From Candidatus Magasanikiibacteriota bacterium (GTDB taxonomy: Bacteria; Patescibacteriota; Patescibacteriia; Magasanikbacterales; GWA2-37-8): 64,000 nucleotides of DNA. A program made the translations under genes and the position numbers. Location: contig JAPLWQ010000002.1 of assembly GCA_026396515.1 (NCBI GenBank), positions 193,230-257,229 of the forward strand. Reading direction: 5' to 3'. Under the pieces are notes generated by a model that saw only the letters and a list, made by a program, of their open reading frames with translations, searched no databases and was not told where the DNA came from. Shown here one piece after another: positions 9,755 to 63,585 of the stretch. Position 1 is the stretch's first letter; the number at the start of each line of letters is the position of its first letter.

Positions 9755-12382
9755 ATGAATTTCTATAAGCGTTTCCATAAACGCGAAAAAAAGCCATCTG
9801 ACCCGGCTTGCTATAGTGCAGCCGACCGGCCTTTTTTTACGTTTGCCAAAAAATCATCGCATGAAGTAATGAAAATATTAAAAAGTTCCGCTTCATCCGG
9901 CCTTTCCATTGCACAATCGCATACTCGACTGTTGAAATATGGCCGTAATGAAATTGTCCGGGAAAAACGCCGCTCATGGGTTGTTCTATTGCTAAAGAAC
10001 TTCAAAGACCCCTTAAGCGCTCTCTTAGTCGCTCTCGCCCTGATTTCCTATCTGACGCACGATATGAAGGCAACTATCATGATAGGTATCATGGTAGTAT
10101 TAAGCGTTTTTTTACGCTTCTACCAAGAAATTAAAGCCGACTTTGCGGCGCAAAAATTAAAAGCAATGGTGCGTACTGTGGCGCATGTTGTCCGAAAAAA
10201 TAAAATCAAAAAAATTCCATTTGAACGCTTAGTCCCCGGAGACATTATCCACTTATCGGCCGGAGATATGATCCCGGCCGATGTCCGGCTACTAGAGACA
10301 AACGGCTTGTATATTAATGAAGCTACTCTCACCGGCGAAGCTCTTCCGGCTGAAAAACACTCCCAACCGATTGCCACAGAGGCAAAAACTCCGCTCGAGC
10401 TTAACAATATCTGTTTTTTGGGCACCAATGTCGCCAGTGGTTCGGCAAAGGCCATCGTAATACTTACCGGTAGCCGGACATATTTGGGCTGCCTGGCAGA
10501 AAGTTTGGTGAAGCCGGAACCACCGACCACTTTTGATCTTGGTGTTAAAAAATTTACATGGCTGATAATGGGCTTAATTTTGGTGATGTCACCGGCGGTC
10601 TTTTTGATCAACGGATTTGCCCATCATCAATGGCTTGAAGCATTTTTATTTGCTATGGCTGTGGCAGTGGGGCTCGCTCCGGAAATGCTACCCATGATTG
10701 TCGCGGTTAACCTGTCCAAGGGCGCTTTGGTTATGTCAAAGAAAAAAGTAATTGTAAAACACCTTGATTCAATACAAAATTTTGGCGCCATGGATATTCT
10801 GTGTATGGACAAAACCGGCACTCTCACCGAGGGCAAAGTGGTGCTGGAAAAATATCTCAACATAAAAGGCGAGGAAGAACCGGCAGTGCTTGAATACGCA
10901 TTTTTAAACAGTTTTTTTCAGACTGGGCTAGAGAATCTTTTAGACGCCGCCGTACTTAAGCATAAAGATGTCGGCGTTAAACTAAAAATAAAAAGCGACT
11001 GGAAAAAAATTGATGAAATTCCATTTGATTTTATCAGGCGCCGCATGTCAGTGGTGATGGAAAACAAAGAAGGCGACCATTTATTAATATGTAAAGGAGC
11101 GGTGGAAGAAATTATTTCCCTTTCCTCACATGTCGATATCAACCATCATACGGAAGCATTCCACGCAGATACATATGAAAAACATTTAGGCATTGAGGAC
11201 AAAATGAACGACGGTGGGTTTCGCGTTGTCGGAGTAGCTTACAAAAAAATCCCCAATACTAAAACGAGATACTCTATAGCTGATGAGACAGGCATGACTC
11301 TTGTCGGATTTCTCGCTTTTCTCGACCCGCCCAAAGAAACGGCCAAGGTCTCTCTCAACGAACTGCGCGACAGCGGAATAACGGTGAAACTATTAACCGG
11401 CGATAATGAATTGGTGACCAGAAAAATTTGTCTTGACGTCGGCCTTGAGGCGACAGATATAGTGTTGGGTTCGGAAATTGAGGAAATGTCTGAAGAAGAA
11501 ATTAAAAAAATTGCCATAAAAATTAATATCTTCGCAAAGCTCACGCCAATGCAAAAAGAACAAATCGTTTCCGCTTTGCGCAGTGCCAACCACACTGTCG
11601 GATTTATGGGCGACGGTATAAACGACGCTCCGGCCTTACGTGGAGCGGATGTCGGCATATCAGTGGATACAGCCGTGGATATTGCCAAGGAATCCTCGGA
11701 CATTATTTTGTTGGAAAAGGATCTTTCAGTATTATACGAAGGCGTCCGTGAAGGCAGGCGCATCTTTGGGAACATCACCAAATATATCCAGATGTCGGCC
11801 AGCTCAAATTTTGGCAATATGTTCAGCGTGGTTGGCGGTAGTATTTTTCTTCCTTTTTTGCCGATGTTGCCAATCCAAATATTGGTGAATAATTTATTAT
11901 ACGACCTTTCCCAAACCACCATACCCACGGACAAGGTTGATGAGGAATATTTAAAAAAACCGCGGCAATGGCGTATCGACCATATTCGCCGGTTTATTAT
12001 GTTCATCGGTCCGGTTAGCTCCCTTTTCGATTACGCCACATTTTTTGTAATGCTTTTTGTCTTTAACACATGGCTTCATCCGTCCCTTTTCCAAACCGGC
12101 TGGTTTGTGGAATCGCTATTAAGCCAAACTCTAATTATTCACGTCATCAGAACAAATAAGATTCCCTTTATTCAGAGCCGCGCCTCCTGGCCGTTAATAG
12201 TAAGTACTGTGGGGATTTCGGCAATCGGTGTCGCATTGCCCTACTCTCCATTCGCCTCTTCATTAGGTTTTTCGCCCCTGCCTTTGTGGTATTGGCCAAT
12301 ACTAATCGCCATGTTATTTATTTATTTTTTTCTTACTCAAATGGTCAAGCGCTGGTTTGCAAAAAAGTATAGGATTGAATAG
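9755..12382 (+). CDS. Cation-transporting P-type ATPase (MgtA-like, Mg2+ importer type)
   Basis: 875 aa with DKTGTLT phosphorylation motif, TGES-like actuator, GDGINDAPAL hinge and about 10 TM helices. The true start may be an internal Met. Confidence 0.85.
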   Translation: MNFYKRFHKREKKPSDPACYSAADRPFFTFAKKSSHEVMKILKSSASSGLSIAQSHTRLLKYGRNEIVREKRRSWVVLLLKNFKDPLSALLVALALISYLTHDMKATIMIGIMVVLSVFLRFYQEIKADFAAQKLKAMVRTVAHVVRKNKIKKIPFERLVPGDIIHLSAGDMIPADVRLLETNGLYINEATLTGEALPAEKHSQPIATEAKTPLELNNICFLGTNVASGSAKAIVILTGSRTYLGCLAESLVKPEPPTTFDLGVKKFTWLIMGLILVMSPAVFLINGFAHHQWLEAFLFAMAVAVGLAPEMLPMIVAVNLSKGALVMSKKKVIVKHLDSIQNFGAMDILCMDKTGTLTEGKVVLEKYLNIKGEEEPAVLEYAFLNSFFQTGLENLLDAAVLKHKDVGVKLKIKSDWKKIDEIPFDFIRRRMSVVMENKEGDHLLICKGAVEEIISLSSHVDINHHTEAFHADTYEKHLGIEDKMNDGGFRVVGVAYKKIPNTKTRYSIADETGMTLVGFLAFLDPPKETAKVSLNELRDSGITVKLLTGDNELVTRKICLDVGLEATDIVLGSEIEEMSEEEIKKIAIKINIFAKLTPMQKEQIVSALRSANHTVGFMGDGINDAPALRGADVGISVDTAVDIAKESSDIILLEKDLSVLYEGVREGRRIFGNITKYIQMSASSNFGNMFSVVGGSIFLPFLPMLPIQILVNNLLYDLSQTTIPTDKVDEEYLKKPRQWRIDHIRRFIMFIGPVSSLFDYATFFVMLFVFNTWLHPSLFQTGWFVESLLSQTLIIHVIRTNKIPFIQSRASWPLIVSTVGISAIGVALPYSPFASSLGFSPLPLWYWPILIAMLFIYFFLTQMVKRWFAKKYRIE

Positions 12383-12417: not shown

Positions 12418-12449
12418 ACAAAAACCGCCAAAGGCGGATTTTGTTTTTG
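12418..12449 (+). terminator. Intrinsic terminator after the ATPase gene
   Basis: AAAAACCGCC-AAA-GGCGGATTTTGTTTTT. Confidence 0.6.
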
Positions 12450-12498
12450 AGCTCCTTGGTAATAGACATTAGAACTATTTTGAGAGATAATTGCTGAC

Positions 12499-12538
12499 CT
12501 TATACCCTGTAGGACATTCACAATGTTCACAAGTTCAC
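12499..12538 (+). repeat. TTCAC-triplet motif, copy A
   Basis: CTTATACCCTGTAGgacaTTCACAATGTTCACAAGTTCAC. Near-identical copies at 14563-14602 and 62556-62596 in the same orientation. Confidence 0.7.
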
Positions 12539-12648
12539 GCCGTAGATTACTGTACCCAGACTTCAAACCACCCGGTAGGGGATATTAGGAGGTGGTTTGA
12601 TACTATTAAGGTAATTATGTGGCCAGCGATGGTGTAGAATTTTATATT

Positions 12649-13182
12649 CTATTTTTGGTTAAAGTTGTTTCTCATATACTGTGGCATTTCTATCGATATA
12701 TCTTCGACCATCCTTTTGGTCTTTTCTGCTACGGTATAAAACTGTTCCACTTTCAAAAAATGTTCCTTTAACTCCATTGTACATTCTTCAATAGTATTAT
12801 TAACGTAAGGTCGAAAAACTTCTGCGCTATCATTTAATTTCTGCACATCTTTACAGTCCCTGTCACTTTCAAAAAGCATTGCTGGAATTTTAGATTTTGT
12901 GAGCGATGCGGCGGTAGTTCGATGGTTACCGTCCAGTGCAAAATATTTTACTTGTGGGTGACTTTTTTCAAAATCCTTAAATTTTTTCTTAACTTTTTCG
13001 TCGAAAACAGCAGTCACCAACTCTTTAGGTAACACAATCACTCTGGCGATAATGTTAGCACAGCCTTTTTGAAAAATTCTAAAATACAATTTTAAAATTA
13101 CACCATCACCTTCCAATAAGTCGTGAATTGGATAGTCAATCATTGTCACAATTTCATTATCTGCTATTTCTAATAGTTTCAT
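12649..13182 (-). CDS. ParB/Srx-fold (ParB-like nuclease domain) protein
   Basis: 177 aa. YFALDGNHRTTAA...KIPAML resembles the ParB N-terminal/sulfiredoxin-fold DGHHR motif. Confidence 0.45.
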   Translation of the reverse strand: MKLLEIADNEIVTMIDYPIHDLLEGDGVILKLYFRIFQKGCANIIARVIVLPKELVTAVFDEKVKKKFKDFEKSHPQVKYFALDGNHRTTAASLTKSKIPAMLFESDRDCKDVQKLNDSAEVFRPYVNNTIEECTMELKEHFLKVEQFYTVAEKTKRMVEDISIEMPQYMRNNFNQK

Positions 13183-13397
13183 AAGAAATGTTTAATACCA
13201 TCATTCTAGCAAATTGTGGTTAAAAAAACTAGATGGGTTCGATTTCTCCTTGGGTCTTAACAAAAAACCCCGCTGTTTAAGCGAAGTTTTTCGGTGAGCT
13301 CGGTGGTAAATGATGTTAGAACTTGTTTGTGTCTGAATTGAAAGTTTAAACCCCTTGGGCAGGGATATTCGGCAGTAGTTTGAAGGCTTAAGCGGAT

Positions 13398-14480
13398 TTA
13401 AGGTCCTACCTTAGTTAAATATTCATGAAATTGACCGCTGGCTCCACCCAAACAAAATTCTAATTCATATGAATTTCCGCCCTTTAAAGGCCTATACGCA
13501 TATTGAAAATTGGTCGGGCAATTTCCGTCATTCGGTAAGGGAGTGCTGGGAATTTGTTGTAGATATACTACACCATCATTCGATAACTGTTTACCTATTT
13601 CTATTTTTTCCGGATACTTTCCATTATCTGTATAATACAGCTCAAGAGCAGTTTGTATCACTTTTATATCGCTAACTCTTTTGTGATCCCGGATTGCAGA
13701 TTCATCAATTACTACAGGTACTACGGGCTCTTTAGTTTGTATCGATTCAACCACAATGTCGGAATAAAATCTAAAAGTATTGTTTTTTTCTGCTCCCACT
13801 TTCCACGTTACATCATCGTATACAGGCTTACCATTTGATACTGGAATATTACACAATTTATTTATCTGAGTAGCGTAATCGGCATCAACCACAGGGATGC
13901 TCATACCTTTATCAATTGAAATCTCTACTAGAGTTTTATAATTTTTTTCTACATTAAAACCTGCGCCCTTAATATATTCATTAGCCTTTTTATGCAGTCT
14001 GTTACACTCATTAAAATCTATTTCTTTTATTCCATCGCAGCAACCATTATATTCAATATCGCAATGATCAGGATATTTTGCAGGCATGATATTGTCCGGT
14101 ATCTCATATTCATTCCCGGAGAAAATTATCTCCTTACTACCCATAAAATTTTTAATCTGGTTAATTTGCGATTGGCCAAGCTGAGTTATAAAATAAAATG
14201 TATTCCGCTCAGGATATGAAGGCATTTCTCTGAAAATTTTTCCATTCTGGCAAAAAATAAAGCGTTCTTCAGCTAATAACAACAACGGTTCTTTATCAGA
14301 GATTACGTATTTTTGTGGTGCGACGCAGTCAATTTCTTTGTTGTTCTCATCCACACAGACATTTAAATTATTGTATTCGGAGCTATTTAAGTCACTACGC
14401 CATTGAAAAAACTTAAATGTCCCAACAGAGGCAGCGATGAAAATAATTATCAAGATTACCGGCAATAATATTTTTTTCAT
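13398..14480 (-). CDS. Secreted Cys-rich protein with C-terminal pseudopilin (GspG-like) domain
   Basis: N-terminal signal/anchor helix but no G|FTLIE prepilin motif. C-terminus TALELYYTDNGKYPE...LSNDGVVYLQQIP...CPTNFQYAYRP resembles type II secretion/type IV pseudopilin globular domains. At least 12 Cys. Confidence 0.4.
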   Translation of the reverse strand: MKKILLPVILIIIFIAASVGTFKFFQWRSDLNSSEYNNLNVCVDENNKEIDCVAPQKYVISDKEPLLLLAEERFIFCQNGKIFREMPSYPERNTFYFITQLGQSQINQIKNFMGSKEIIFSGNEYEIPDNIMPAKYPDHCDIEYNGCCDGIKEIDFNECNRLHKKANEYIKGAGFNVEKNYKTLVEISIDKGMSIPVVDADYATQINKLCNIPVSNGKPVYDDVTWKVGAEKNNTFRFYSDIVVESIQTKEPVVPVVIDESAIRDHKRVSDIKVIQTALELYYTDNGKYPEKIEIGKQLSNDGVVYLQQIPSTPLPNDGNCPTNFQYAYRPLKGGNSYELEFCLGGASGQFHEYLTKVGP

Positions 14481-14562: not shown

Positions 14563-14602
14563 AGGCCGCTGTCTTATACCCTGTAGAACGTTCACAATGT
14601 TC
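14563..14602 (+). repeat. TTCAC-triplet motif, copy B
   Basis: CTTATACCCTGTAGaacgTTCACAATGTTCACAAGTTCAC. Directly abuts a 16-nt duplicate of the tRNA-Gly(TCC) 3' end (GAGCGGGCAACGGGAA, 14604-14620). Confidence 0.7.
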
Positions 14603-14615
14603 ACAAGTTCACCCG

Positions 14616-14746
14616 AGCGGGCAACGGGAAATCTCACGCGGCGCTACGCGCCTTTCACGAAAGGGCTTCCGCCCTCTCGTGAACTCTCCCCCACAATAGC
14701 GGGAAAACCGCCAAGCAGTTTTCCCAAACCCTTTCGGTTCGATTCC
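14616..14746 (+). repeat. tRNA-associated structured element, copy 3
   Basis: GGGAAATCTCAC...GGTTCGATTCCC termini. Three hairpins (GCGGCGC-TAC-GCGCC, CACGAAAGGGC-TTC-CGCCCTCTCGTG, GGGAAAAC-CGCCAAGCA-GTTTTCCC) with compensatory changes versus copies 1 and 2. Confidence 0.6.
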
Positions 14747-14794
14747 CGTCCGATATAATAAAATAATCCCACGGATTCGGGATTATTTTATTAG

Positions 14795-14866
14795 AGCGGG
14801 CAACGGGAATCGAACCCGTATCACCAGTTTGGAAAACTGGAATAATAGCCGTTATATTATGCCCGC
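14795..14866 (-). tRNA. tRNA-Gly(TCC)
   Basis: Acceptor GCGGGCA/TGCCCGC, anticodon loop TTTCCAA, T-arm ACGGG-TTCGATT-CCCGT, discriminator T. Confidence 0.85.
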
Positions 14867-15035
14867 AACGAGTGGAAACCGAGAATAAATTCTCGGTTTT
14901 CCGAGCAAGGGCATTATATACCTAAGTATATTATGCCCGCGAAATTGACATATGAATTGTGGTGATATCTTACAAAAATACTTCCGATTAGTCAATATTC
15001 AACAATAGTAAATAATTTGATATAATGATACTAAT

Positions 15036-35586: not shown

Positions 35587-35853
35587 AATGTATATATTAC
35601 GAGTAAAATATTTATTATTAAGTCAACAAACGGCGATCCGACCGAATCACCTGCAGCAATTATATCACACTTTATAAATATGATAAACTGTGAATAACTC
35701 AGTAATGGGACCTGTGTAAACATCTGCACATCTCGGAACCGTGTCCATGTATTTATGGCATATGCATGTGCTCTATTGCGCGAACTGGAAGTTCAACCGG
35801 GTTGGACAATTCATTTTCGGGTTATCTCACGCCTCGTGTGCAGAAATGTCATT

Positions 35854-35877
35854 TTTGTGTACGCTAGCGTACACAAA
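35854..35877. promoter_or_regulatory. 24-bp perfect palindrome P1, copy a
   Basis: TTTGTGTACGCTAGCGTACACAAA is its own reverse complement. Copies at 36825-36848, 61047-61070 (1 mismatch) and 61160-61183. Confidence 0.6.
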
Positions 35878-35913
35878 TTTTCAATATATCGCATGCTATC
35901 CACAATTTATTCA

Positions 35914-35938
35914 CAAAAAAATACCCTGCAAGGGTATT
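35914..35938 (-). terminator. Terminator of tRNA-Ala(CGC) (minus strand)
   Basis: Minus-strand read AAATACCCTTGCAGGGTATTTTTT: hairpin plus U-run directly 3' of the tRNA. Confidence 0.55.
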
Positions 35939-35942
35939 TGAG

Positions 35943-36013
35943 TGGACTTACCGGGAATTGAACCCGGGTCTCCGCAATGCGAATGCGGCGTACTACCGCT
36001 GTACTATAAGCCC
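35943..36013 (-). tRNA. tRNA-Ala(CGC)
   Basis: Acceptor GGGCTTA/TAAGTCC with G3:U70, anticodon loop TTCGCAT, T-arm CCGGG-TTCAATT-CCCGG. Confidence 0.8.
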
Positions 36014-36091
36014 AAATATATGATGCCAATGCTATATCCTCGGTAATGGAGATAAATTTCAATTTCCAACACACCGAATAGCTTGCTCGAA

Positions 36092-36113
36092 AATTGTTTC
36101 ACGTGAAACAATT
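36092..36113. promoter_or_regulatory. 22-bp perfect palindrome P2, copy a
   Basis: AATTGTTTCACGTGAAACAATT with a CACGTG core. Identical copy at 36580-36601 and an 18-bp core copy at 36729-36746. Confidence 0.6.
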
Positions 36114-36280
36114 TGACTCAATTTCGAATATTATATCACAATTCTTGAAGAAATCAAGGGCAAAATGTGTATAATTGTGCATAAATACCGCCTCTTGTCA
36201 GGATATCAGCCAGAACATAAAAAAAACCGCCTCAACCGAAGTATGTTGGCGGGAGCAGAGGGGCTGCTCAGTCCTTGCGA

Positions 36281-36535
36281 TCACTTGCTCTTGTAGAAGA
36301 TGGTAATGGTAACATGATGAGAAAGGCGGCCGGAAGCGTTTTGTAGCACCCGCGTGATCTCGACGGTTGCGCCGGCCAACTCGAGCCAGTCATTAATCTG
36401 CTTCTCGAGACCCACTGAGTTATCGACCGCATAGAACACTTTTACTCTCTCCATTTGCTTCCTCCTTTTCGGCAAAAAATGAGCTTGAACCACTATCGGC
36501 TTACTCAAAATAGCACGTGATGTCATTTCTGTCAA
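36281..36535 (-). CDS. Small hypothetical protein bracketed by P2 palindromes
   Basis: 84-aa ORF, or 57 aa from MERVKVFYAVDNS. P2a lies downstream and P2b upstream. No homology recognised. Confidence 0.3.
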   Translation of the reverse strand: MTEMTSRAILSKPIVVQAHFLPKRRKQMERVKVFYAVDNSVGLEKQINDWLELAGATVEITRVLQNASGRLSHHVTITIFYKSK

Positions 36536-36579
36536 TATAGCGCCGGAAAACAGCTATTTACGCAGTTATACATGATAAG

Positions 36580-36601
36580 AATTGTTTCACGTGAAACAAT
36601 T
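36580..36601. promoter_or_regulatory. Palindrome P2, copy b
   Basis: AATTGTTTCACGTGAAACAATT. Confidence 0.6.
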
Positions 36602-36646
36602 CTTTGGGTAAATATGAGATTTTTGGCTAATTTCAGCCAAATATAG

Positions 36647-36718
36647 TGTCCTCGCCAGGAATCGAACCTGGATCCGAGCATTAGGAGTGCCCGGTTCTAT
36701 CCATTAAACTACGAGGAC
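36647..36718 (-). tRNA. tRNA-Arg(CCT)
   Basis: Acceptor GTCCTCG/CGAGGAC, D-stem GTTT/AGAC-type, anticodon loop CTCCTAA, T-arm CCAGG-TTCGATT-CCTGG. Confidence 0.8.
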
Positions 36719-36728
36719 CTGATAGAAG

Positions 36729-36746
36729 ATGTTTCACGTGAAACAT
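36729..36746. promoter_or_regulatory. Palindrome P2, copy c (18-bp core)
   Basis: ATGTTTCACGTGAAACAT, 10 bp from the tRNA-Arg 5' end. Confidence 0.55.
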
Positions 36747-36824
36747 TCTTGCACGTTAAATGCCACCACTATCACAATGCCTGCAATTGTCATATGCGCA
36801 ATCCTAGAAGTCGATTTTCACGCG

Positions 36825-36848
36825 TTTGTGTACGCTAGCGTACACAAA
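36825..36848. promoter_or_regulatory. Palindrome P1, copy b (upstream of rmuC)
   Basis: TTTGTGTACGCTAGCGTACACAAA, about 105 bp upstream of the rmuC start. Confidence 0.6.
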
Positions 36849-36953
36849 TCTACAAATGAGACCACGGCCAGTAATAAGCAGACAATTACATTCATGGCCT
36901 CTCCTTGTGGAAAACTTGCCGGGATGGTAATATCTTACTATAAAATACAAATT

Positions 36954-52040: not shown

Positions 52041-52049
52041 TTATCCACA
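52041..52049 (+). promoter_or_regulatory. Consensus DnaA box upstream of dnaA
   Basis: TTATCCACA, followed by a weaker TTTTCCACA at 52052-52060. Confidence 0.55.
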
Positions 52050-52140
52050 CCTTTTCCACATCTCCTGCACTTTGTAAGTTCGATTTTTTGGCTATGTTGT
52101 GATAAAATTCAGTAAATTAAAAAACTCGGATATACCCATT

Positions 52141-53538
52141 ATGAACAATAACGAGATCTGGCAGGCCGTGCTTGCCGAACTGGAACTATCAATATCAAAA
52201 GCCAATTTTATCACCTGGTTTAAAAATACAGGCATCGTTTCAGTTCAGGAAGGCCAAATATTGCTTTGCGTGCCCAACACATTCGCACGCGCCTGGTTTG
52301 AAAAAAAATATCACCATATGATTATCAAATCAATGGAGCGCATTATGGGCAAGCCTGTGCGCCGCCTTGAATATAAAATTGATAATATAAGAAATTTAGC
52401 TGAACAAGCGGCAAATGCATTCGATACCTTTACCACTGCCTACGCCGGAGGCGCGGAGACAGTTGACGCCTCACGGTCACTATCGAGACCCGCCAGCCAA
52501 AATGGGGGTTTTGCTCTCAATCCAAAATATTGTTTTGAAAATTTTGTCGTCGGTAGCGGATCAGAGCTCGCTTACGCGGCGGCCAAGGCGGTTTCTGAAC
52601 GGCCCGGCGAAGCATACAATCCACTATTTATTTATGGGGGCGTCGGTCTCGGAAAAACCCACCTCATTCAGGCCATTGGCACCCAAATATTAAAAAATAA
52701 TCCAAGCGCCGCTGTTTTATACGTAAGCGCTGAAAAATTTTCAAATGATTTTATACAATCGGTAAAAGAAGGCACGGCAAAAGAATTTCAAAATCATTAC
52801 CGAAACATTGATTTGCTTCTAATTGATGATATCCAATTCATTGCCGGCAAAGACCGCACGCAGGAATCTTTTTTTCACACCTTCAACGAACTCCACCAAC
52901 AGAACAAGCAAATTGTATTAACCTCCGACCGGCCGCCAAAAGCCATCCCCACATTAGAGGACAGATTAAAATCCAGATTTGAGTGGGGGATGATCGCCGA
53001 CATTACCATGCCTGATTTTGAAACACGCGTCGCTATTTTGCAGAAGAAATGTTCAGAAAAAACTTTTGACTTGCCTGAAAAAGTGCTTCACACCATCGCC
53101 GCTTCAGTCCAATCGAATATTCGCGAGCTTGAGGGGTCGCTTAATAAAATTATCGCCTACCACCAATTGAAGAATTTGACTCCCTCGGTTGAGTCAGTGA
53201 AATCATTACTTAGCTCAATCGAAACAGCCTCAATGAAGCAATCACTGGCCCCGCGCCAGATTACAGAGACTGTTTGCCAGTTTTATAGCATCCCATCGGA
53301 AAACATTTCCAATAAAAGCCGCGAAAAACGCGTTTCTTACCCACGGCAGATCATTATGTATCTCATGCGTGAGGAATTAAAAATGTCTTACCCTACAATT
53401 GGCGGCGAATTGGGCGGCCGCGATCACACTACGGCAATGCACGCCTATGAGAAAATTCGGCGCGACGTTGAAAATAGCCCTAAATTGAAACAAGAAATTG
53501 AATTAATTAAGCAACGACTATATATAAATAATGTTTAA
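52141..53538 (+). CDS. dnaA: Chromosomal replication initiator DnaA
   Basis: AAA+ Walker A GGVGLGKTHL, Walker B LLLIDDIQF, sensor motifs, and the C-terminal DNA-binding domain with a DnaA signature. Alternative upstream start at 52099. Confidence 0.9.
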   Translation: MNNNEIWQAVLAELELSISKANFITWFKNTGIVSVQEGQILLCVPNTFARAWFEKKYHHMIIKSMERIMGKPVRRLEYKIDNIRNLAEQAANAFDTFTTAYAGGAETVDASRSLSRPASQNGGFALNPKYCFENFVVGSGSELAYAAAKAVSERPGEAYNPLFIYGGVGLGKTHLIQAIGTQILKNNPSAAVLYVSAEKFSNDFIQSVKEGTAKEFQNHYRNIDLLLIDDIQFIAGKDRTQESFFHTFNELHQQNKQIVLTSDRPPKAIPTLEDRLKSRFEWGMIADITMPDFETRVAILQKKCSEKTFDLPEKVLHTIAASVQSNIRELEGSLNKIIAYHQLKNLTPSVESVKSLLSSIETASMKQSLAPRQITETVCQFYSIPSENISNKSREKRVSYPRQIIMYLMREELKMSYPTIGGELGGRDHTTAMHAYEKIRRDVENSPKLKQEIELIKQRLYINNV

Positions 53539-53800
53539 TTTTGTTTATATTGTGTGGATAAATCTGTTAAAACAGTGACTAGCGGCTCTTACTTATCCCC
53601 ACATTATAGTAGCTATACACACTCAGGCGAAGAGCAAAAAAATGTCCTCACCTTTTATACAGAGATTTTTACTTGACTATACACAGGTAACTAATCAATA
53701 ATACCCTTATCTGAGCGCAAAAAAGGAATTATCCCCTCTATTCACATCCCTTATTATTATGATTATCTAAATATATATAAAATAATACCAATTAATAAAT
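53539..53800. promoter_or_regulatory. Putative oriC (dnaA-dnaN intergenic)
   Basis: DnaA box TGTGGATAA at 53553-53561, near-box TTATCCCCA at 53593-53601, and an AT-rich stretch CTAAATATATATAAAATAATACCAATTAATAAAT at 53767-53800. Confidence 0.6.
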
Positions 53801-54925
53801 ATGAAGATCACATGTATAAAAGAAAATTTAGCGACAGCACTATCATTAGTAACAAATTTGGCTACAAAGAGCGTAAATTTGCCAATATTAAGTAATGTTT
53901 TAATTAAAGCCAGCGAACAAAAAGTGGAAATAATATCAACAAATCTGGAATTAGCAATTATTGTTTCCATCAGGGCTAAGGTGGAAGAACCCGGGTCGTT
54001 TACCGTACCAGCTAGAACCCTGACAGATTTTGTAAATTTGCTAGCTGATGAAAAAATTGATGTCGAATTGAAAGAAAATGAACTGGTTGTGTCGTGCGGA
54101 AAATCGGCGACTAAGATTAAGGGTATCCCGGCGGACGAATATCCCGTCATACCAGCAGTGGGCGAGGGTCAGGGTTTTTTGGTACCGGTGGAAGATATGA
54201 AAAAAGGCCTCTCACAAGTCAACCTGGCGGCCGCGCGCAACGACATCAGGCCGGAACTGTCCGGTGTATTGTTTGCCTTTAATCTGGAAAACAGCGGCCA
54301 GTTGGTTGTAGCGGCGACAGATAGTTATCGCCTGGCCGAGAAAAAGATAAAGCTCCTTCAGGGCAAGGAATCCTTTCGGGTTATTGTACCAGGCCGCACC
54401 TCACAGGAAATTGCTCATATTCTTTCTTCGTCCAGTGAATTGGAATCTGAAAAAAGCGTACGCATAATTCTAAGTGAAAATCAGATTGCGGTGAATTATA
54501 ACAGTGTGCAGATGATTTCACGTTTGGTGGAAGGGCAATATCCGGACTACACTCAAATTATTCCCAAAGATTTCAAAACATCGGCTGAGTTTTCTATCGC
54601 CAAAATGGTTAAAGAAATAAAAGCAGCGAGTCTATTTACAACGGTCGGAGTAAACGCGGTTGCTTTTGATATTCTGCCCGCTGAGGGAGAAATAAAAATT
54701 GCGTCAACTTCAACTCAGACAGGTGAATATCGCTCCGGGATGGAAGCGGAAATTAAAGGAGAAAAAAATGCTATTCTCTTAAATCACAGATATTTATTGG
54801 ACGGGTTAAATAGTATTAACGGAGACGTAGGGACGCTTAAAATAATTAATAGTGACAGTCCATGCGTCCTCATTGGAAAAAACGAGGAAAATTATTTGTA
54901 TATAGTCATGCCTATACGGCAGTAG
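53801..54925 (+). CDS. dnaN: DNA polymerase III beta sliding clamp
   Basis: 374 aa, three-domain clamp, N-terminus MKITCIKENLATALSLV. Confidence 0.9.
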   Translation: MKITCIKENLATALSLVTNLATKSVNLPILSNVLIKASEQKVEIISTNLELAIIVSIRAKVEEPGSFTVPARTLTDFVNLLADEKIDVELKENELVVSCGKSATKIKGIPADEYPVIPAVGEGQGFLVPVEDMKKGLSQVNLAAARNDIRPELSGVLFAFNLENSGQLVVAATDSYRLAEKKIKLLQGKESFRVIVPGRTSQEIAHILSSSSELESEKSVRIILSENQIAVNYNSVQMISRLVEGQYPDYTQIIPKDFKTSAEFSIAKMVKEIKAASLFTTVGVNAVAFDILPAEGEIKIASTSTQTGEYRSGMEAEIKGEKNAILLNHRYLLDGLNSINGDVGTLKIINSDSPCVLIGKNEENYLYIVMPIRQ

Positions 54926-61046: not shown

Positions 61047-61070
61047 TTTGTGTACACTAGTGTATACAAA
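61047..61070. promoter_or_regulatory. Palindrome P1, copy c
   Basis: TTTGTGTACACTAGTGTATACAAA, one mismatch from a perfect palindrome. Confidence 0.55.
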
Positions 61071-61159: not shown

Positions 61160-61183
61160 TTTGTATACACTAGCGTACACAAA
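61160..61183. promoter_or_regulatory. Palindrome P1, copy d
   Basis: TTTGTATACACTAGCGTACACAAA. 113 bp from copy c and about 120 bp upstream of the 61303 gene start. DnaA-box-like TTATCCACA at 61138-61146 is adjacent. Confidence 0.55.
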
Positions 61184-61302: not shown

Positions 61303-62421
61303 ATGAGCCACATAATAACAATTATTCTATTGATTTTGGCTGCCCTAGGCATTGTGTTTGCCAGCCATTTTTTCGTTTATTATTCACTTGGTCATTTTTT
61401 TAAGATTGTTAACCCTGACATCAACACGGCGATGGCTATTGTAATCTCAATTCTAGCTGTTAGCTTTATTGTCGCTTCCGTATTGGCCCACTGGAAGGAG
61501 AACATATTTACTCGGGCACTATATTTTACTTCCGGTCTGTGGCTCGGGTTATTGGTGAACCTGATCATTGCTTTATTGTTAGGATGGTTGGTTTCAGCGT
61601 TAGTGCATTCCGTCGGCATATATCCAAATTTGGCTATAATTGGCGTATTATCAGTTATTTTGGCGCTAATTTACACCTCTTGGGGTGTTTGGAGTGCATT
61701 TAATCCGGTCGTTCGGCATGTGGATATTACCATTAAAAACCTGCCTGAATATTGGAAGCAAAAGACAGTGGTACAAATATCAGACGTGCATTTGGGCCAT
61801 GTTTTTAACAAAAATTTCTTGAATAAAGTGGTAAGTCAAATAAACGCGGAAATGCCGGAAGCAGTATTCATCACCGGTGATTTGTTTGATGGTATGGACG
61901 GGCAGTTGGTTTCTCACGTCGGTCCGCTTGATAGTATTATCGCTAAGTATGGTGTGTTTTTTATTACCGGTAATCATGAAATATATTTTGGCGTTGACCG
62001 GGCAAAACAAATATTGTCACAAACAAAAGTGCGCATTTTATCAGATGAGACAGTCGATTTGGAAGGCCTTCAAATTGTCGGCTTAAATTATTCTGACCAA
62101 TTTGAAGACCGCGATCTTGTAAAACTAATCGGCGAACAGAAAAATTTTTCCGCTGATCGTCCGGCGATATTGCTTTATCACAGCCCGGTGCAGGTAGATA
62201 AGATTAAAAAGGCGGGCATTGATCTTCAACTTGCCGGCCATACTCACGGCGGCCAGATGTTTCCTTTCGGATATATTACCCGGCTGATATTCAGGGGATA
62301 TGACTATGGCTTGTCACGGGATGGCGATTTTTCAATTTACACCACTAGTGGGGTCGGTACATGGGGCCCGACCATCCGTACCGGTAACCGACCAGAAATA
62401 GTGGTCTTACATTTTCAATAA
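61303..62421 (+). CDS. Membrane-anchored metallophosphoesterase (calcineurin-like; YkuE type)
   Basis: Four N-terminal TM helices, then MPE motifs VQISDVHLGH, GDLFDG, GNHE, GHTHGGQ. Confidence 0.8.
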   Translation: MSHIITIILLILAALGIVFASHFFVYYSLGHFFKIVNPDINTAMAIVISILAVSFIVASVLAHWKENIFTRALYFTSGLWLGLLVNLIIALLLGWLVSALVHSVGIYPNLAIIGVLSVILALIYTSWGVWSAFNPVVRHVDITIKNLPEYWKQKTVVQISDVHLGHVFNKNFLNKVVSQINAEMPEAVFITGDLFDGMDGQLVSHVGPLDSIIAKYGVFFITGNHEIYFGVDRAKQILSQTKVRILSDETVDLEGLQIVGLNYSDQFEDRDLVKLIGEQKNFSADRPAILLYHSPVQVDKIKKAGIDLQLAGHTHGGQMFPFGYITRLIFRGYDYGLSRDGDFSIYTTSGVGTWGPTIRTGNRPEIVVLHFQ

Positions 62422-62555
62422 TTTGCTTATTGAGGAGGGAATATTCTCTGACAGCGGCAGTAGCCATTGTCGGTTTTTTGTTGGTAGATCACTGTACTCA
62501 GACTTTAAACCCCATTATGCTGGATTTGAGACGGTGGATGGAGGGAATACCCTTG

Positions 62556-62596
62556 CTTAATACCCTGTAGGTGGTTCACAATGTTCACTTGTTCAC
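62556..62596 (+). repeat. TTCAC-triplet motif, copy C
   Basis: CTTAATACCCTGTAGgtggTTCACAATGTTCACTTGTTCAC. Confidence 0.65.
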
Positions 62597-62724
62597 TACT
62601 TAACTATAATGCACCGAACAATTGAAAAAGGGCGATTAGGTAGATGATGAATAAAAAGCATCCATTAATATAGTATTTTACCATTGCCCTAGAAACCTTA
62701 TGAATATTTTTAGCTTCTTTTTTA

Positions 62725-63222
62725 TTACTCCCACCAATTAATAGTTCTGTATATAAATTCAAAAGATATAATCTTTCTATCCTTAGCATAGCGTTCAATA
62801 TCCTTATCTTTCATGTGCCAGGAATAGGTGTTTTTGCCTTTACGCTGTAAAGCCAGCAAATGTTTCAGCGACAGAATATAACAATAAATTTTTTCGCCAG
62901 CGTCAATCACCAAAGCAAAATAAGGTTTGCATTTGAACGCTTTACAGGCCTTTTTGATTTTCCTGAAATTGTCGTTATCTATGCTTAACGGCGTTCCTTC
63001 CTTGCCGACATTCCGGCTTCTGCCTTTAACAGAAATGCCTATCACTTCTTTTGAACGCAGCCTTCGGGCAATAATATCAATGCCGGTATGGTCTATGATG
63101 GCGCATTCAAAGCCATATTTGGAAAGCCAATAGCGGATAATATTTTCACAAAAATCACCGGTAATCTTGGCATGCCTTGAACTTTTTTTAAGCTTCATAT
63201 TATCTAAAAACCCGCCGAACAT
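62725..63222 (-). CDS. Hypothetical protein, possibly restriction-endonuclease-like (PD-(D/E)xK-type) fold
   Basis: 165 aa. GIDIIARRLRSKEVIGISVKG resembles Hjc/Mrr-type catalytic cores. The weak, spaced D/E/K pattern is the only basis. Confidence 0.3.
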   Translation of the reverse strand: MFGGFLDNMKLKKSSRHAKITGDFCENIIRYWLSKYGFECAIIDHTGIDIIARRLRSKEVIGISVKGRSRNVGKEGTPLSIDNDNFRKIKKACKAFKCKPYFALVIDAGEKIYCYILSLKHLLALQRKGKNTYSWHMKDKDIERYAKDRKIISFEFIYRTINWWE

Positions 63223-63437
63223 AAAAGCGGCGGGTGTGTTTGTTAGTGATTATAGCTGGCAATATCCATAAATAAGCCAAAAATATGCTTATGGCTATAT
63301 TATATCAAAATTAAGCCGTTTTGTCCGTATAAACAAAACGCCCACTGAGGAGGGATCCTTGGTGGGGCTTTGTGCTCATATTATTGAGCCCGAGTATTAT
63401 AGGAGAATACTTGACTTTTAGCCATATTTTGCCTCTC

Positions 63438-63537
63438 TTGACAGGGAAGGTCGTTTTTGGTAAGATATCATCACAATAAATAAACCTGCGACATTTCACC
63501 TGATTTTCTAATCGGGCGAAGGTCGCGGGTTTTTTTA
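63438..63537 (+). ncRNA. Candidate small RNA or leader/attenuator (promoter plus terminator, about 65 nt)
   Basis: TTGACA (63438-63443), 17-nt spacer, TAAGAT (63461-63466). An 8-bp stem CCTGCGAC/GTCGCGGG encloses a 28-nt loop, followed by TTTTTTT at 63531-63537. Confidence 0.3.
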
Positions 63538-63585
63538 TTTAAGGCGCAGCAAATTTAGCCAATAATAATTAATTAATAATTCTAT

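Follow-up and report, generated by a model that had tools for sequence, protein, structure and literature searches.

Why should the same short sequence stand beside two different putative nuclease genes in one bacterial chromosome? A 64,000-nucleotide (nt) stretch of a Candidatus Magasanikiibacteriota genome (GenBank assembly GCA_026396515.1, contig JAPLWQ010000002.1, positions 193,230–257,229; the whole stretch is referred to hereafter as the window) contains copies of a motif built from three TTCAC boxes, two of these copies lying downstream of genes with nuclease-like features. A first-pass annotation had taken this pairing to suggest a modular association, for example a small mobile or defence-related gene set sharing a recombination or regulatory site. 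We find that the motif, in this Candidatus Magasanikbacteria genome, is a discrete DNA element of 40 nt with a lineage-restricted distribution, and that its link with nuclease genes does not hold elsewhere. Our preferred reading, held tentatively (with a probability of about 0.4), is that of a protein-recognised DNA site at the joints of horizontally acquired accessory islets, possibly similar to an attachment (att) site and used in trans.

The conserved unit is a 40-nt block, CTTATACCCTGTAGnnnnTTCACAATGTTCACnnGTTCAC, present in the window as three copies (A, B and C; Table 1), all on the plus strand; the chance expectation for the TTCAC triplet over the same 64 kb is 0.11. The triplet that had been annotated at copy C, TTCACAATGTTCACTTGTTCAC, is where it was said to be and forms part of this longer unit. 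Window copies are 95% and 83% identical over 40 nt (blastn E 8e-10 and 2e-6), with A and B, the 95% identical pair, forming direct repeats 2074 bp apart. The edges of the motif are sharp, alignment revealing that the flanks of the copies diverge at once on both sides; a profile hidden Markov model search of the window gave no additional degenerate copies, and neither a minus-strand nor an inverted partner is present anywhere within it. Over four copies from two genomes (A, B, C and that of the metagenomic locus L002, described below), 31 of the 40 positions are invariant, the invariant parts being an 11-nt head (ATACCCTGTAG), the first two boxes together with their AATG spacer, and the third box. 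Box starts are spaced at 9 and 8 bp, with AT-rich sequence between the boxes, such that all four copies share the layout TTCAC-AATG-TTCAC-(AAG/TTG)-TTCAC. The sole internal structure is a 7-bp hairpin (GGACAUU-CAC-AAUGUUC) that includes wobble pairs and is lost in copy C. Copies A, C and L002 also agree in their setting, having a core plus-strand gene and its terminator to the left, and minus-strand accessory or orphan genes to the right; A and C both lie beyond the intrinsic terminators of their plus-strand genes.

Beyond this genome, instances of the motif are very rare: among 185,579 species genomes a tolerant pattern scan yielded a single locus (L001), and 241 million metagenome records yielded four, of which only L002 is convincing (L003, L004 and L005 were discarded as chance or simple-repeat matches). 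The L002 copy is 87–92% identical over 39–47 nt, on a contig that shares no other sequence with the window, and conservation at this level without conserved flanks argues for a recognised site. Its neighbours are orphan genes with no domain matches, none of them nuclease-like; a nearly perfect GC-rich hairpin with a stem of ~25 bp lies ~28 nt downstream of the motif (L002 7312–7400) and has no Rfam match. Two viral-contig scans gave zero matches, no phage match was found, and plasmid matches were at chance level; we accordingly set aside a phage or plasmid origin, these collections having given nothing meaningful. The species-genome locus L001 is a mobile-element-like region encoding sigma-70 region-4, DUF5659 and HTH_17 excisionase-type proteins, in which two TTCAC triplets, both with the 9/8-bp spacing, stand in inverted orientation ~90 bp apart. 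Only one of these two triplets was constrained by the search pattern, although the locus itself was picked by that pattern in a scan whose chance yield we estimate at ~0.6 hits. As judged from its sequence, L001 supports the three-box array as a candidate protein-binding architecture in Patescibacteria mobile DNA, while its kinship to the window motif is uncertain.

The proposed coupling to nucleases can be judged directly from these positions. The geometry that had been described was accurate, in that copies A and C lie 110 and 128 nt, respectively, from the stop codons at 12649 (the 177-amino-acid (aa) gene) and 62725 (the 157-aa gene, first reported as 165 aa), so that two of the three window copies are found 110–128 nt beyond such genes. 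The fold proposed for the protein next to copy C also stood up, the model being of PD-(D/E)xK type (mean predicted local distance difference test score, pLDDT, 90.2; closest structural match Hjc, E 3.5e-6), and in L015 a homolog lies near a gene with the Shedu SduA_C domain. Against a module stands the fact that copy B, placed between the start of the pilin-like 360-aa gene and tRNA-Gly, and the L002 copy both lack a nuclease-like neighbour, and that 19 homolog loci are motif-less. These take in 157-aa homologs in two other genomes (L014 and L015/L016) with no motif nearby, and 16 loci from two sister lineages whose 177-aa homologs are 79–82% identical and have neither the motif nor its neighbouring modules within 2–7 kb; nucleotide homology of these sister loci with the window is confined to the 177-aa open reading frame (ORF) ± ~14 bp. 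PADLOC gave no defence-model match for either the 157-aa or the 177-aa protein, and PHROG matches were only marginal. (A 156-aa gene upstream of the 177-aa homolog in the P0125 lineage, L025–L032, was considered as a relative of the 157-aa gene and proved unrelated.) The first-pass annotation had itself held that motif copies elsewhere without nuclease-like genes would refute its proposal; such copies are what we find, and together with the motif-less homolog loci they refute the module claim by its own criterion. A site shared by a nuclease-containing mobile or defence module is thus very improbable. The broader part of that proposal, accessory or mobile genes sharing a recombination or regulatory site, remains compatible with copies at the edges of low-GC accessory DNA; it is the nuclease coupling that falls away.

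The positions of the copies relative to base composition are informative. Copies A and B both fall in the interval separating the P-type ATPase gene (9755–12382) from tRNA-Gly(tcc). The interior between A and B, containing the 177-aa and 360-aa genes, has a GC content of 0.352 (window mean 0.433, standard deviation 0.034); it is the lowest-GC 2 kb and holds the only 1-kb windows below 0.36 GC in the entire 64 kb. The low-GC side lies rightward at A, C and L002 and leftward at B (Table 1), and over longer stretches the L002 contig has a GC content of 0.422 left of the motif and 0.341 right of it. This consistent direction of the GC steps at four copies hints at an islet-edge location, and is to be regarded as suggestive, not as proof.

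Copy B is further distinguished by its proximity to a tRNA gene. Two nucleotides after the motif there begins an exact 16-nt duplicate of the 3′ end of tRNA-Gly(tcc) (14615–14630, equal to 14794–14809); the tRNA gene itself is 181 nt from the motif, with a GC-rich tRNA-derived element and the tRNA terminator intervening. A duplicated tRNA 3′ end is a classic integration neighbourhood. Similar GC-rich elements of ~100–150 nt lie past the terminators of tRNA-Leu, tRNA-Gly(gcc) and tRNA-Gly(tcc) (at 1937–2180, 9420–9526 and 14613–14760), each of which starts as a partial, inverted copy of a tRNA T-arm and acceptor end; at 14613 the 16-nt direct copy of the tRNA-Gly 3′ end is also found at the start. 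These elements, at which Logan assemblies break, may constitute a tRNA-derived miniature mobile element family. We considered the motif as a promoter of such elements and rejected this, the two others being without a motif.

A different form of evidence comes from copy C. Contigs of two independent Logan assemblies (samples SRR20698648 and SRR20698649) are 100% identical to the window and both end exactly at 62519, the break (62519/62520) falling 38 nt before the motif and inside a neighbouring repeat module; the opposite ends of the same contigs fall at tRNA-related repeats. The 157-aa product is missing from both Logan assemblies, and the next ORF is present only as a 71-aa call on a 2.1-kb contig. 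The break and the absent product together indicate that, in the source population, DNA rightward of 62519 is either repeated or variable among strains.

Sensitive sequence comparison of the motif surroundings revealed three further modules: a 60-nt left arm (which includes half a terminator), a 20-nt block (GTAGAT.ACTGTAC.CAGAC), and a 45-nt hairpin-like module. All are restricted to the 3′ flanks of three low-GC genes and occur nowhere else in the window. Their order differs from site to site (Table 1), such that the 40-nt motif behaves as an independent unit that can be placed variously among local repeats.

Table 1. Coordinates of the motif copies, their neighbouring modules and the adjoining genes. 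GC values are for the 1 kb to the left and the 1 kb to the right of each copy, with the percentile of the step among all window positions.
Feature	Position	Strand	Module order	GC left, right (percentile)	Remarks
Motif copy A	12499–12538	+	arm, motif, block, hairpin	0.424, 0.364 (87.6)	TTCAC triplet part 12517–12538; 110 nt beyond stop of 177-aa gene
Motif copy B	14573–14612	+	motif alone	0.338, 0.416 (95.7)	triplet part 14591–14612; upstream of start of 360-aa gene
Motif copy C	62557–62596	+	block, hairpin, motif	0.427, 0.366 (88.2)	TTAATACCCTGTAGGTGGTTCACAATGTTCACTTGTTCAC; triplet part TTCACAATGTTCACTTGTTCAC at 62575–62596
Motif copy in L002			motif alone	0.376, 0.328 (75.3)	
Site X	13281–13385		arm, hairpin		between two islet genes
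Left-arm module, site A	12434–12493	+			takes in 3′ half of bidirectional terminator 12425–12437
Left-arm module, site X	13281–13340	+			68% identical to 12434–12493
Block plus hairpin module, right of motif A	12542–12602	+			AAACCACC...GGTGGTTT; order reversed relative to site C
Block plus hairpin-like module, left of motif C	62484–62544	+			block GTAGATCACTGTACTCAGAC; 74% identical to 12542–12602
Hairpin module, site X	13343–13385	+			13 nt beyond stop of 360-aa gene; without motif and without block
177-aa protein gene	12649–13182	−			DGNHR motif; weak ParB/Srx-like fold matches; GC 0.337
360-aa protein gene	13398–14480	−			pilin-like; N-terminal transmembrane segment; weak T2SSG pseudopilin match; GC 0.347
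GC-rich tRNA-derived element	14613–14760	+			14716–14755 is an inverted partial copy of the tRNA
tRNA-Gly, anticodon tcc	14794–14866	−			
157-aa protein gene	62725–63198	−			PD-(D/E)xK Hjc-like fold; ORF to 63222; GC 0.38

How might such an element operate? In the reading that we prefer, a small DNA-binding protein would read the three TTCAC boxes as an array, with the 11-nt head providing a second recognition element. The site would mark or mediate joints at which accessory genes have been inserted or exchanged, in an att-like manner with the enzyme supplied in trans, and the nuclease-fold and ParB-like genes would be ordinary islet cargo as opposed to functional partners of the motif. Protein binding, and any role in recombination, are inferred here, whereas the element itself, its conservation and positions, the GC steps, the missing nuclease link at other loci and the mosaic of modules are shown directly. 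Several features favour the proposal: the A/B direct repeats bracket a compositionally deviant 2 kb, and B abuts the duplicated tRNA-Gly 3′ end; the Logan break ahead of C points to a repeat or a strain-variable joint; and the cargo appears mobile, the 177-aa gene being found in three contexts in three lineages and the 157-aa family across many phyla.

A number of observations weigh against this proposal and account for our caution. Neither the Pfam-annotated genes within ~9 kb of the copies, on the sides that are visible, nor 20 further window proteins include an integrase, transposase or other recombinase, and none is present in the A–B islet; dyad symmetry as expected for a recombinase core is not seen in the motif, A and B are mismatched at 2 of their 40 positions, and no empty site or circular junction was observed. 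Each GC step is modest when taken singly, and A and B are mutually non-independent. Since the left arm recurs inside the islet (at site X), the motif lies near the GC transition and not exactly on it. The kinship of L001 is uncertain because that locus was pattern-selected and ~0.6 such hits are expected by chance, and with only four convincing copies the positional rule rests on very few cases.

The motif can be compared with several known types of site. Like the att repeats of tRNA-linked islands, two direct copies bracket a deviant 2 kb, one of them abutting a duplicated tRNA 3′ end, and the cargo genes occur in different contexts among related lineages. Unlike such islands, no integrase was found at the motif sites, the repeat does not overlap the tRNA gene, the islet is tiny, and the 40-nt block is found again at a second locus as well as in another genome. 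The integron attC sites and the pdif-Xer sites of Acinetobacter plasmids share with it the property of being a short site that is the sole sequence common to unrelated gene modules, served by an enzyme acting in trans. The motif nevertheless has neither the imperfect palindrome nor the R″(RYYYAAC)/R′(GTTRRRY) cores of attC, nor the dyad arms of Xer sites; neither an IntI gene nor an array of cassettes was seen, and the motif copies are direct where pdif modules are inverted. An attC identity was accordingly rejected on direct reading (no internal dyad or core sites, no minus-strand copies, no integrase found), as was that of a miniature inverted-repeat transposable element (no inverted partner in the window, a sharp-edged 40-nt block and flanks that are not duplicated).

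Arrays bound by ribbon-helix-helix proteins offer a parallel at the level of the boxes. ParG of TP228 binds ACTC boxes with regular 4-bp AT-rich spacers, one dimer per box (PMC3130281), and omega of pSM19035 binds contiguous 7-bp WATCACW heptads (PMC9499535). The motif likewise has short non-palindromic boxes every 7–9 bp with AT-rich spacers, and its box TTCAC(A/T) differs from the omega heptad core by a single base. It has only three boxes, whereas omega requires at least 4 contiguous heptads for full activity and ParG sites have 8–20 boxes; in addition it carries the extra 11-nt head, has no adjacent cognate gene identified, and is chromosomal and mostly located beyond gene ends. The sites of the OmpR-family regulator PhoP have an 11-bp period composed of a 7-bp motif and a 4-bp spacer (PMC4832192). 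Such PHO boxes resemble the motif in their GTTCAC-containing direct repeats, but the motif repeats at 9 and 8 bp, and for the most part its copies do not precede a promoter; a response-regulator site was rejected on this spacing (9/8 versus 11 bp). We regard the motif as a new lineage-restricted example within the broad class of short intergenic repeats and junction sites.

A bolder version of the junction idea is that the 40-nt block is the recombination site of an undescribed trans-acting cassette-exchange system of Patescibacteria, which we consider a long shot. Such a site would serve an attC- or pdif-like function while being non-palindromic, with a conserved head and three tandem protein-binding boxes, and small accessory and defence-type genes (for Hjc-like nucleases, ParB-like proteins and pilins) would be swapped beside core genes and tRNAs.

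The serious rival to the junction reading is that of a mosaic intergenic repeat, neutral or weak in function, of the kind represented by the bacterial interspersed mosaic elements (BIMEs) and repetitive extragenic palindromic (REP) units of E. coli or to the pneumococcal BOX elements. The motif and its companions would then be modules of a lineage-specific dispersed family that gather in gene-end gaps and are shuffled by duplication and recombination; they would serve no particular protein, and would influence mRNA 3′ ends only generically, if at all. The differing combinations at A, X and C and the solitary motifs at B and L002 fit this well, as do the location of three of four copies in convergent gene-end gaps beside terminators and the finding of no cognate enzyme gene among the window proteins examined; REP and BOX families share both the reordering of modules in gene-end gaps and the assembly breaks, and the Logan break inside the block-plus-hairpin module (with other breaks at tRNA-related repeats) is what near-identical copies elsewhere would produce. 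The motif is, however, non-palindromic, its weak hairpin (lost in C) being unlike REP units; its copies are sparse (three in 64 kb); the modules are confined to the flanks of three low-GC genes; no gene resembling a REP-associated tyrosine transposase (RAYT) was seen; and 31 of 40 positions invariant between two otherwise unrelated sequences are hard to obtain without selection or recent transfer. Overall we judge the neutral mosaic unlikely, while continuing to treat it as a real competitor. A host regulatory or architectural operator, at which a chromosomal ribbon-helix-helix or ParB-like protein (for example the 177-aa protein) binds the boxes and regulates or insulates accessory genes, is distinctly doubtful. 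Its appeal lies in a box and AT-spacer layout of 8–9-bp period that matches ParG and omega operators and centromeres, in ParB, Noc and KorB being the best fold matches of the 177-aa protein, and in the inverted triplets of L001, which straddle a gene start; the GTTCAC box is also the parS half-site GTTTCAC minus one T, with canonical parS present three times in the window, although this is a lead only. It is countered by the 16 sister loci that have the ParB-like gene without the motif within 2–7 kb, by a 177-aa fold match that is weak (no E ≤0.001), by the lack of an identified ribbon-helix-helix gene adjoining any copy, and by the conserved 11-nt head, which an operator would leave unexplained. 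An operator would, moreover, find no promoter or gene start to act on at three of the four copies, since these are situated past the ends of genes.

Two further explanations concern transcription and replication. Were the motif an RNA element, it would form the 5′ part or promoter of small structured plus-strand RNAs convergent with the accessory genes, or a 3′ untranslated region element of minus-strand transcripts. Each copy is indeed followed within ~5–45 nt on the plus strand by a hairpin-rich segment and then by T-rich sequence (12559–12648, 14613–14790, 62634–62725 and L002 7312–7400), and all four lie downstream of a transcription unit on the minus strand. These downstream segments are unrelated to one another in sequence, however, and no Rfam family matches around the copies including L002, even at permissive thresholds (only tRNAs pass the gathering threshold); covariation is not seen at the variable positions, copy C has lost the small internal hairpin, and A and C lie past the intrinsic terminators of plus-strand genes. 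No conserved −10/−35 elements can be placed on either strand, and promoter scans flag nothing overlapping the motif. We accordingly rejected both a sigma-70 promoter and a structured RNA as identities of the motif, and hold an RNA element of any kind to be improbable. A polar element of replication or segregation (a DnaA-box cluster, or a Ter-, KOPS- or Chi-like site near the origin) is scarcely credible. The window is origin-proximal, with dnaA, dnaN and three parS sites, and TGTTCACA loosely resembles a DnaA box; but the DnaA boxes here are of canonical TTATCCACA form, none of the 15 TTWTNCACA matches in the window falls in the motif, and the L002 copy is not beside replication genes. GC skew turns at ~48–58 kb, so that A and B belong to one replichore and C to the other, although all three share a strand; with TTWTNCACA matches elsewhere and strand constant over the replichores, this candidate was also set aside.

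Although not a partner of the motif, the protein encoded beside copy C is of interest in its own right. It is identical to NCBI protein NTW66_01785 (annotated start 63198, 157 aa; contig of 328,883 bp), and the 165-aa ORF from which it was first described is over-extended. The first ATG of that ORF is covered by a hairpin (CCCGCCG...CGGCGGG, 63199–63228), which accounts for the second ATG being the annotated start. The hairpin has T-runs on both strands and probably acts as terminator of the upstream minus-strand unit. The weak D...E...K pattern reported for the longer product pointed to the correct fold, though the motif is in fact D41...S56-V57-K58. An alignment-based AlphaFold2 model (pLDDT 90.2, predicted template modelling score 0.85) has an alpha-beta-beta-beta-alpha-beta core and gave 25 Foldseek matches in the PDB at E ≤0.001, headed by archaeal Hjc (E 3.5e-6), with SPARDA DREN domains, RecU and restriction enzymes following. 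Similarity to Hjc and other PD-(D/E)xK nucleases extends over the core fold and topology (target-normalised TM-score ~0.67), with the N-terminal helix Glu, the strand Asp and the xK motif at equivalent places. The differences are equally clear: by sequence, neither Hjc nor any solved structure is matched (with the family profile as query, the full set of PDB sequences gave no Hjc or other nuclease at E ≤10), the second acid is replaced by an invariant Ser immediately before xK (SxK rather than (D/E)xK), a further ~40 residues are present at the C terminus, and the family is bacterial and candidate-phyla-radiation-wide with no Pfam model. Pfam gathering thresholds were not reached (UPF0102/YraN, PF02021, 18.6 versus 23.6 bits; Mrr_cat, PF04471, 15.8 versus 21), nor was that of the NCBIfam YraN model (14.5 versus a cutoff of 124).

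Over 31 sequences of this family the invariant residues are E18, D36-H37, D41, S56-V57-K58 and D99; from their conservation, we suggest that D36, H37 and D99 might compensate for the missing second acid. The model thus confirms a predicted PD-(D/E)xK nuclease-type fold with an atypical catalytic motif, and activity is only putative. At least 794 members, 55–68% identical, are found at E ≤0.001 in Patescibacteria, Nanoarchaeota, Thermodesulfovibrionales, Deltaproteobacteria and Latescibacteria, many of them on very short contigs. In L015/L016 the gene overlaps an upstream 145-aa partner gene, with the Shedu SduA_C-domain gene nearby, and in L014 its neighbours are housekeeping genes. The 157-aa protein defines a very large, tightly conserved and Pfam-less family that joins an Hjc-like fold to an unusual invariant SxK.

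The 177-aa protein of the A–B islet (identical to NCBI protein NTW66_01515, from the same 328,883-bp contig) had been described as a ParB-like nuclease, of which only the ParB-like part finds an echo. Its family is small, with 28 members found in Magasanikbacteria and close relatives, and shares an invariant DGNHR motif (G85, H87 and R88 invariant); Pfam gives the protein no match, ParBc included. The model has a pLDDT of 77 (four of five models being poor), and the best Foldseek matches are ParB, Noc, KorB, PadC and Srx, at a best E of 7.6e-3 with none ≤0.001; most are CTPase/DNA-binding or ATP-dependent proteins and not nucleases. A ParB/Srx-like protein is plausible from this model, the matches being coherent but weak. 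The gene changes its neighbours by lineage (an epimerase in one, Fic in another) and is adjoined by an ISL3 transposase in L021. In the lineage of L017 and L020 its homolog is enclosed by 37-nt inverted repeats that are 92% complementary (L017 918–954 and 1620–1656; L020 843–879 and 1545–1581), forming a 739-bp cassette-like unit bounded by terminal inverted repeats.

Elsewhere, the window offers several features that stand apart from the motif. dnaA (52099–53538) and dnaN (53801–54925) are flanked by perfect TTATCCACA boxes (52041–53561 region), and these genes and boxes, together with a turn in cumulative GC skew at ~48–58 kb, indicate that the window spans the replication origin region. A second cluster of DnaA-box matches (35689–36914) and parS sites is located 16 kb from the dnaA region; here three copies of AATTGTTTCACGTGAAACAATT (36092–36113, 36580–36601 and 36727–36748), holding the canonical parS palindrome TGTTTCACGTGAAACA, flank tRNA-Arg and tRNA-Ala. 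A perfect or near-perfect 24-nt palindrome, TTTGTGTACGCTAGCGTACACAAA, occurs four to five times (35854–35877, 36825–36848, 61047–61070 and 61160–61183), two copies being just upstream of the metallophosphoesterase gene at 61303–62421, and looks like an operator. Finally, 63438–63540 contains a strong promoter-like site (TTGACA-17-TAAGAT with TG extension), 86% similar over 28 nt to the tRNA-Gly(tcc) promoter region (14951–14978) and followed after ~60 nt by a GC-rich hairpin and T-run with no Rfam match; this region may be a small RNA gene.

The result chiefly corrects an over-interpretation: the motif is real, yet has no nuclease-gene partner. Candidate-phyla-radiation bacteria have tiny genomes, and the means by which they acquire and exchange accessory genes are little understood. 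If the junction reading is true, a short site at islet edges would provide a handle on the variable regions, and on the recombination machinery, of uncultured lineages.

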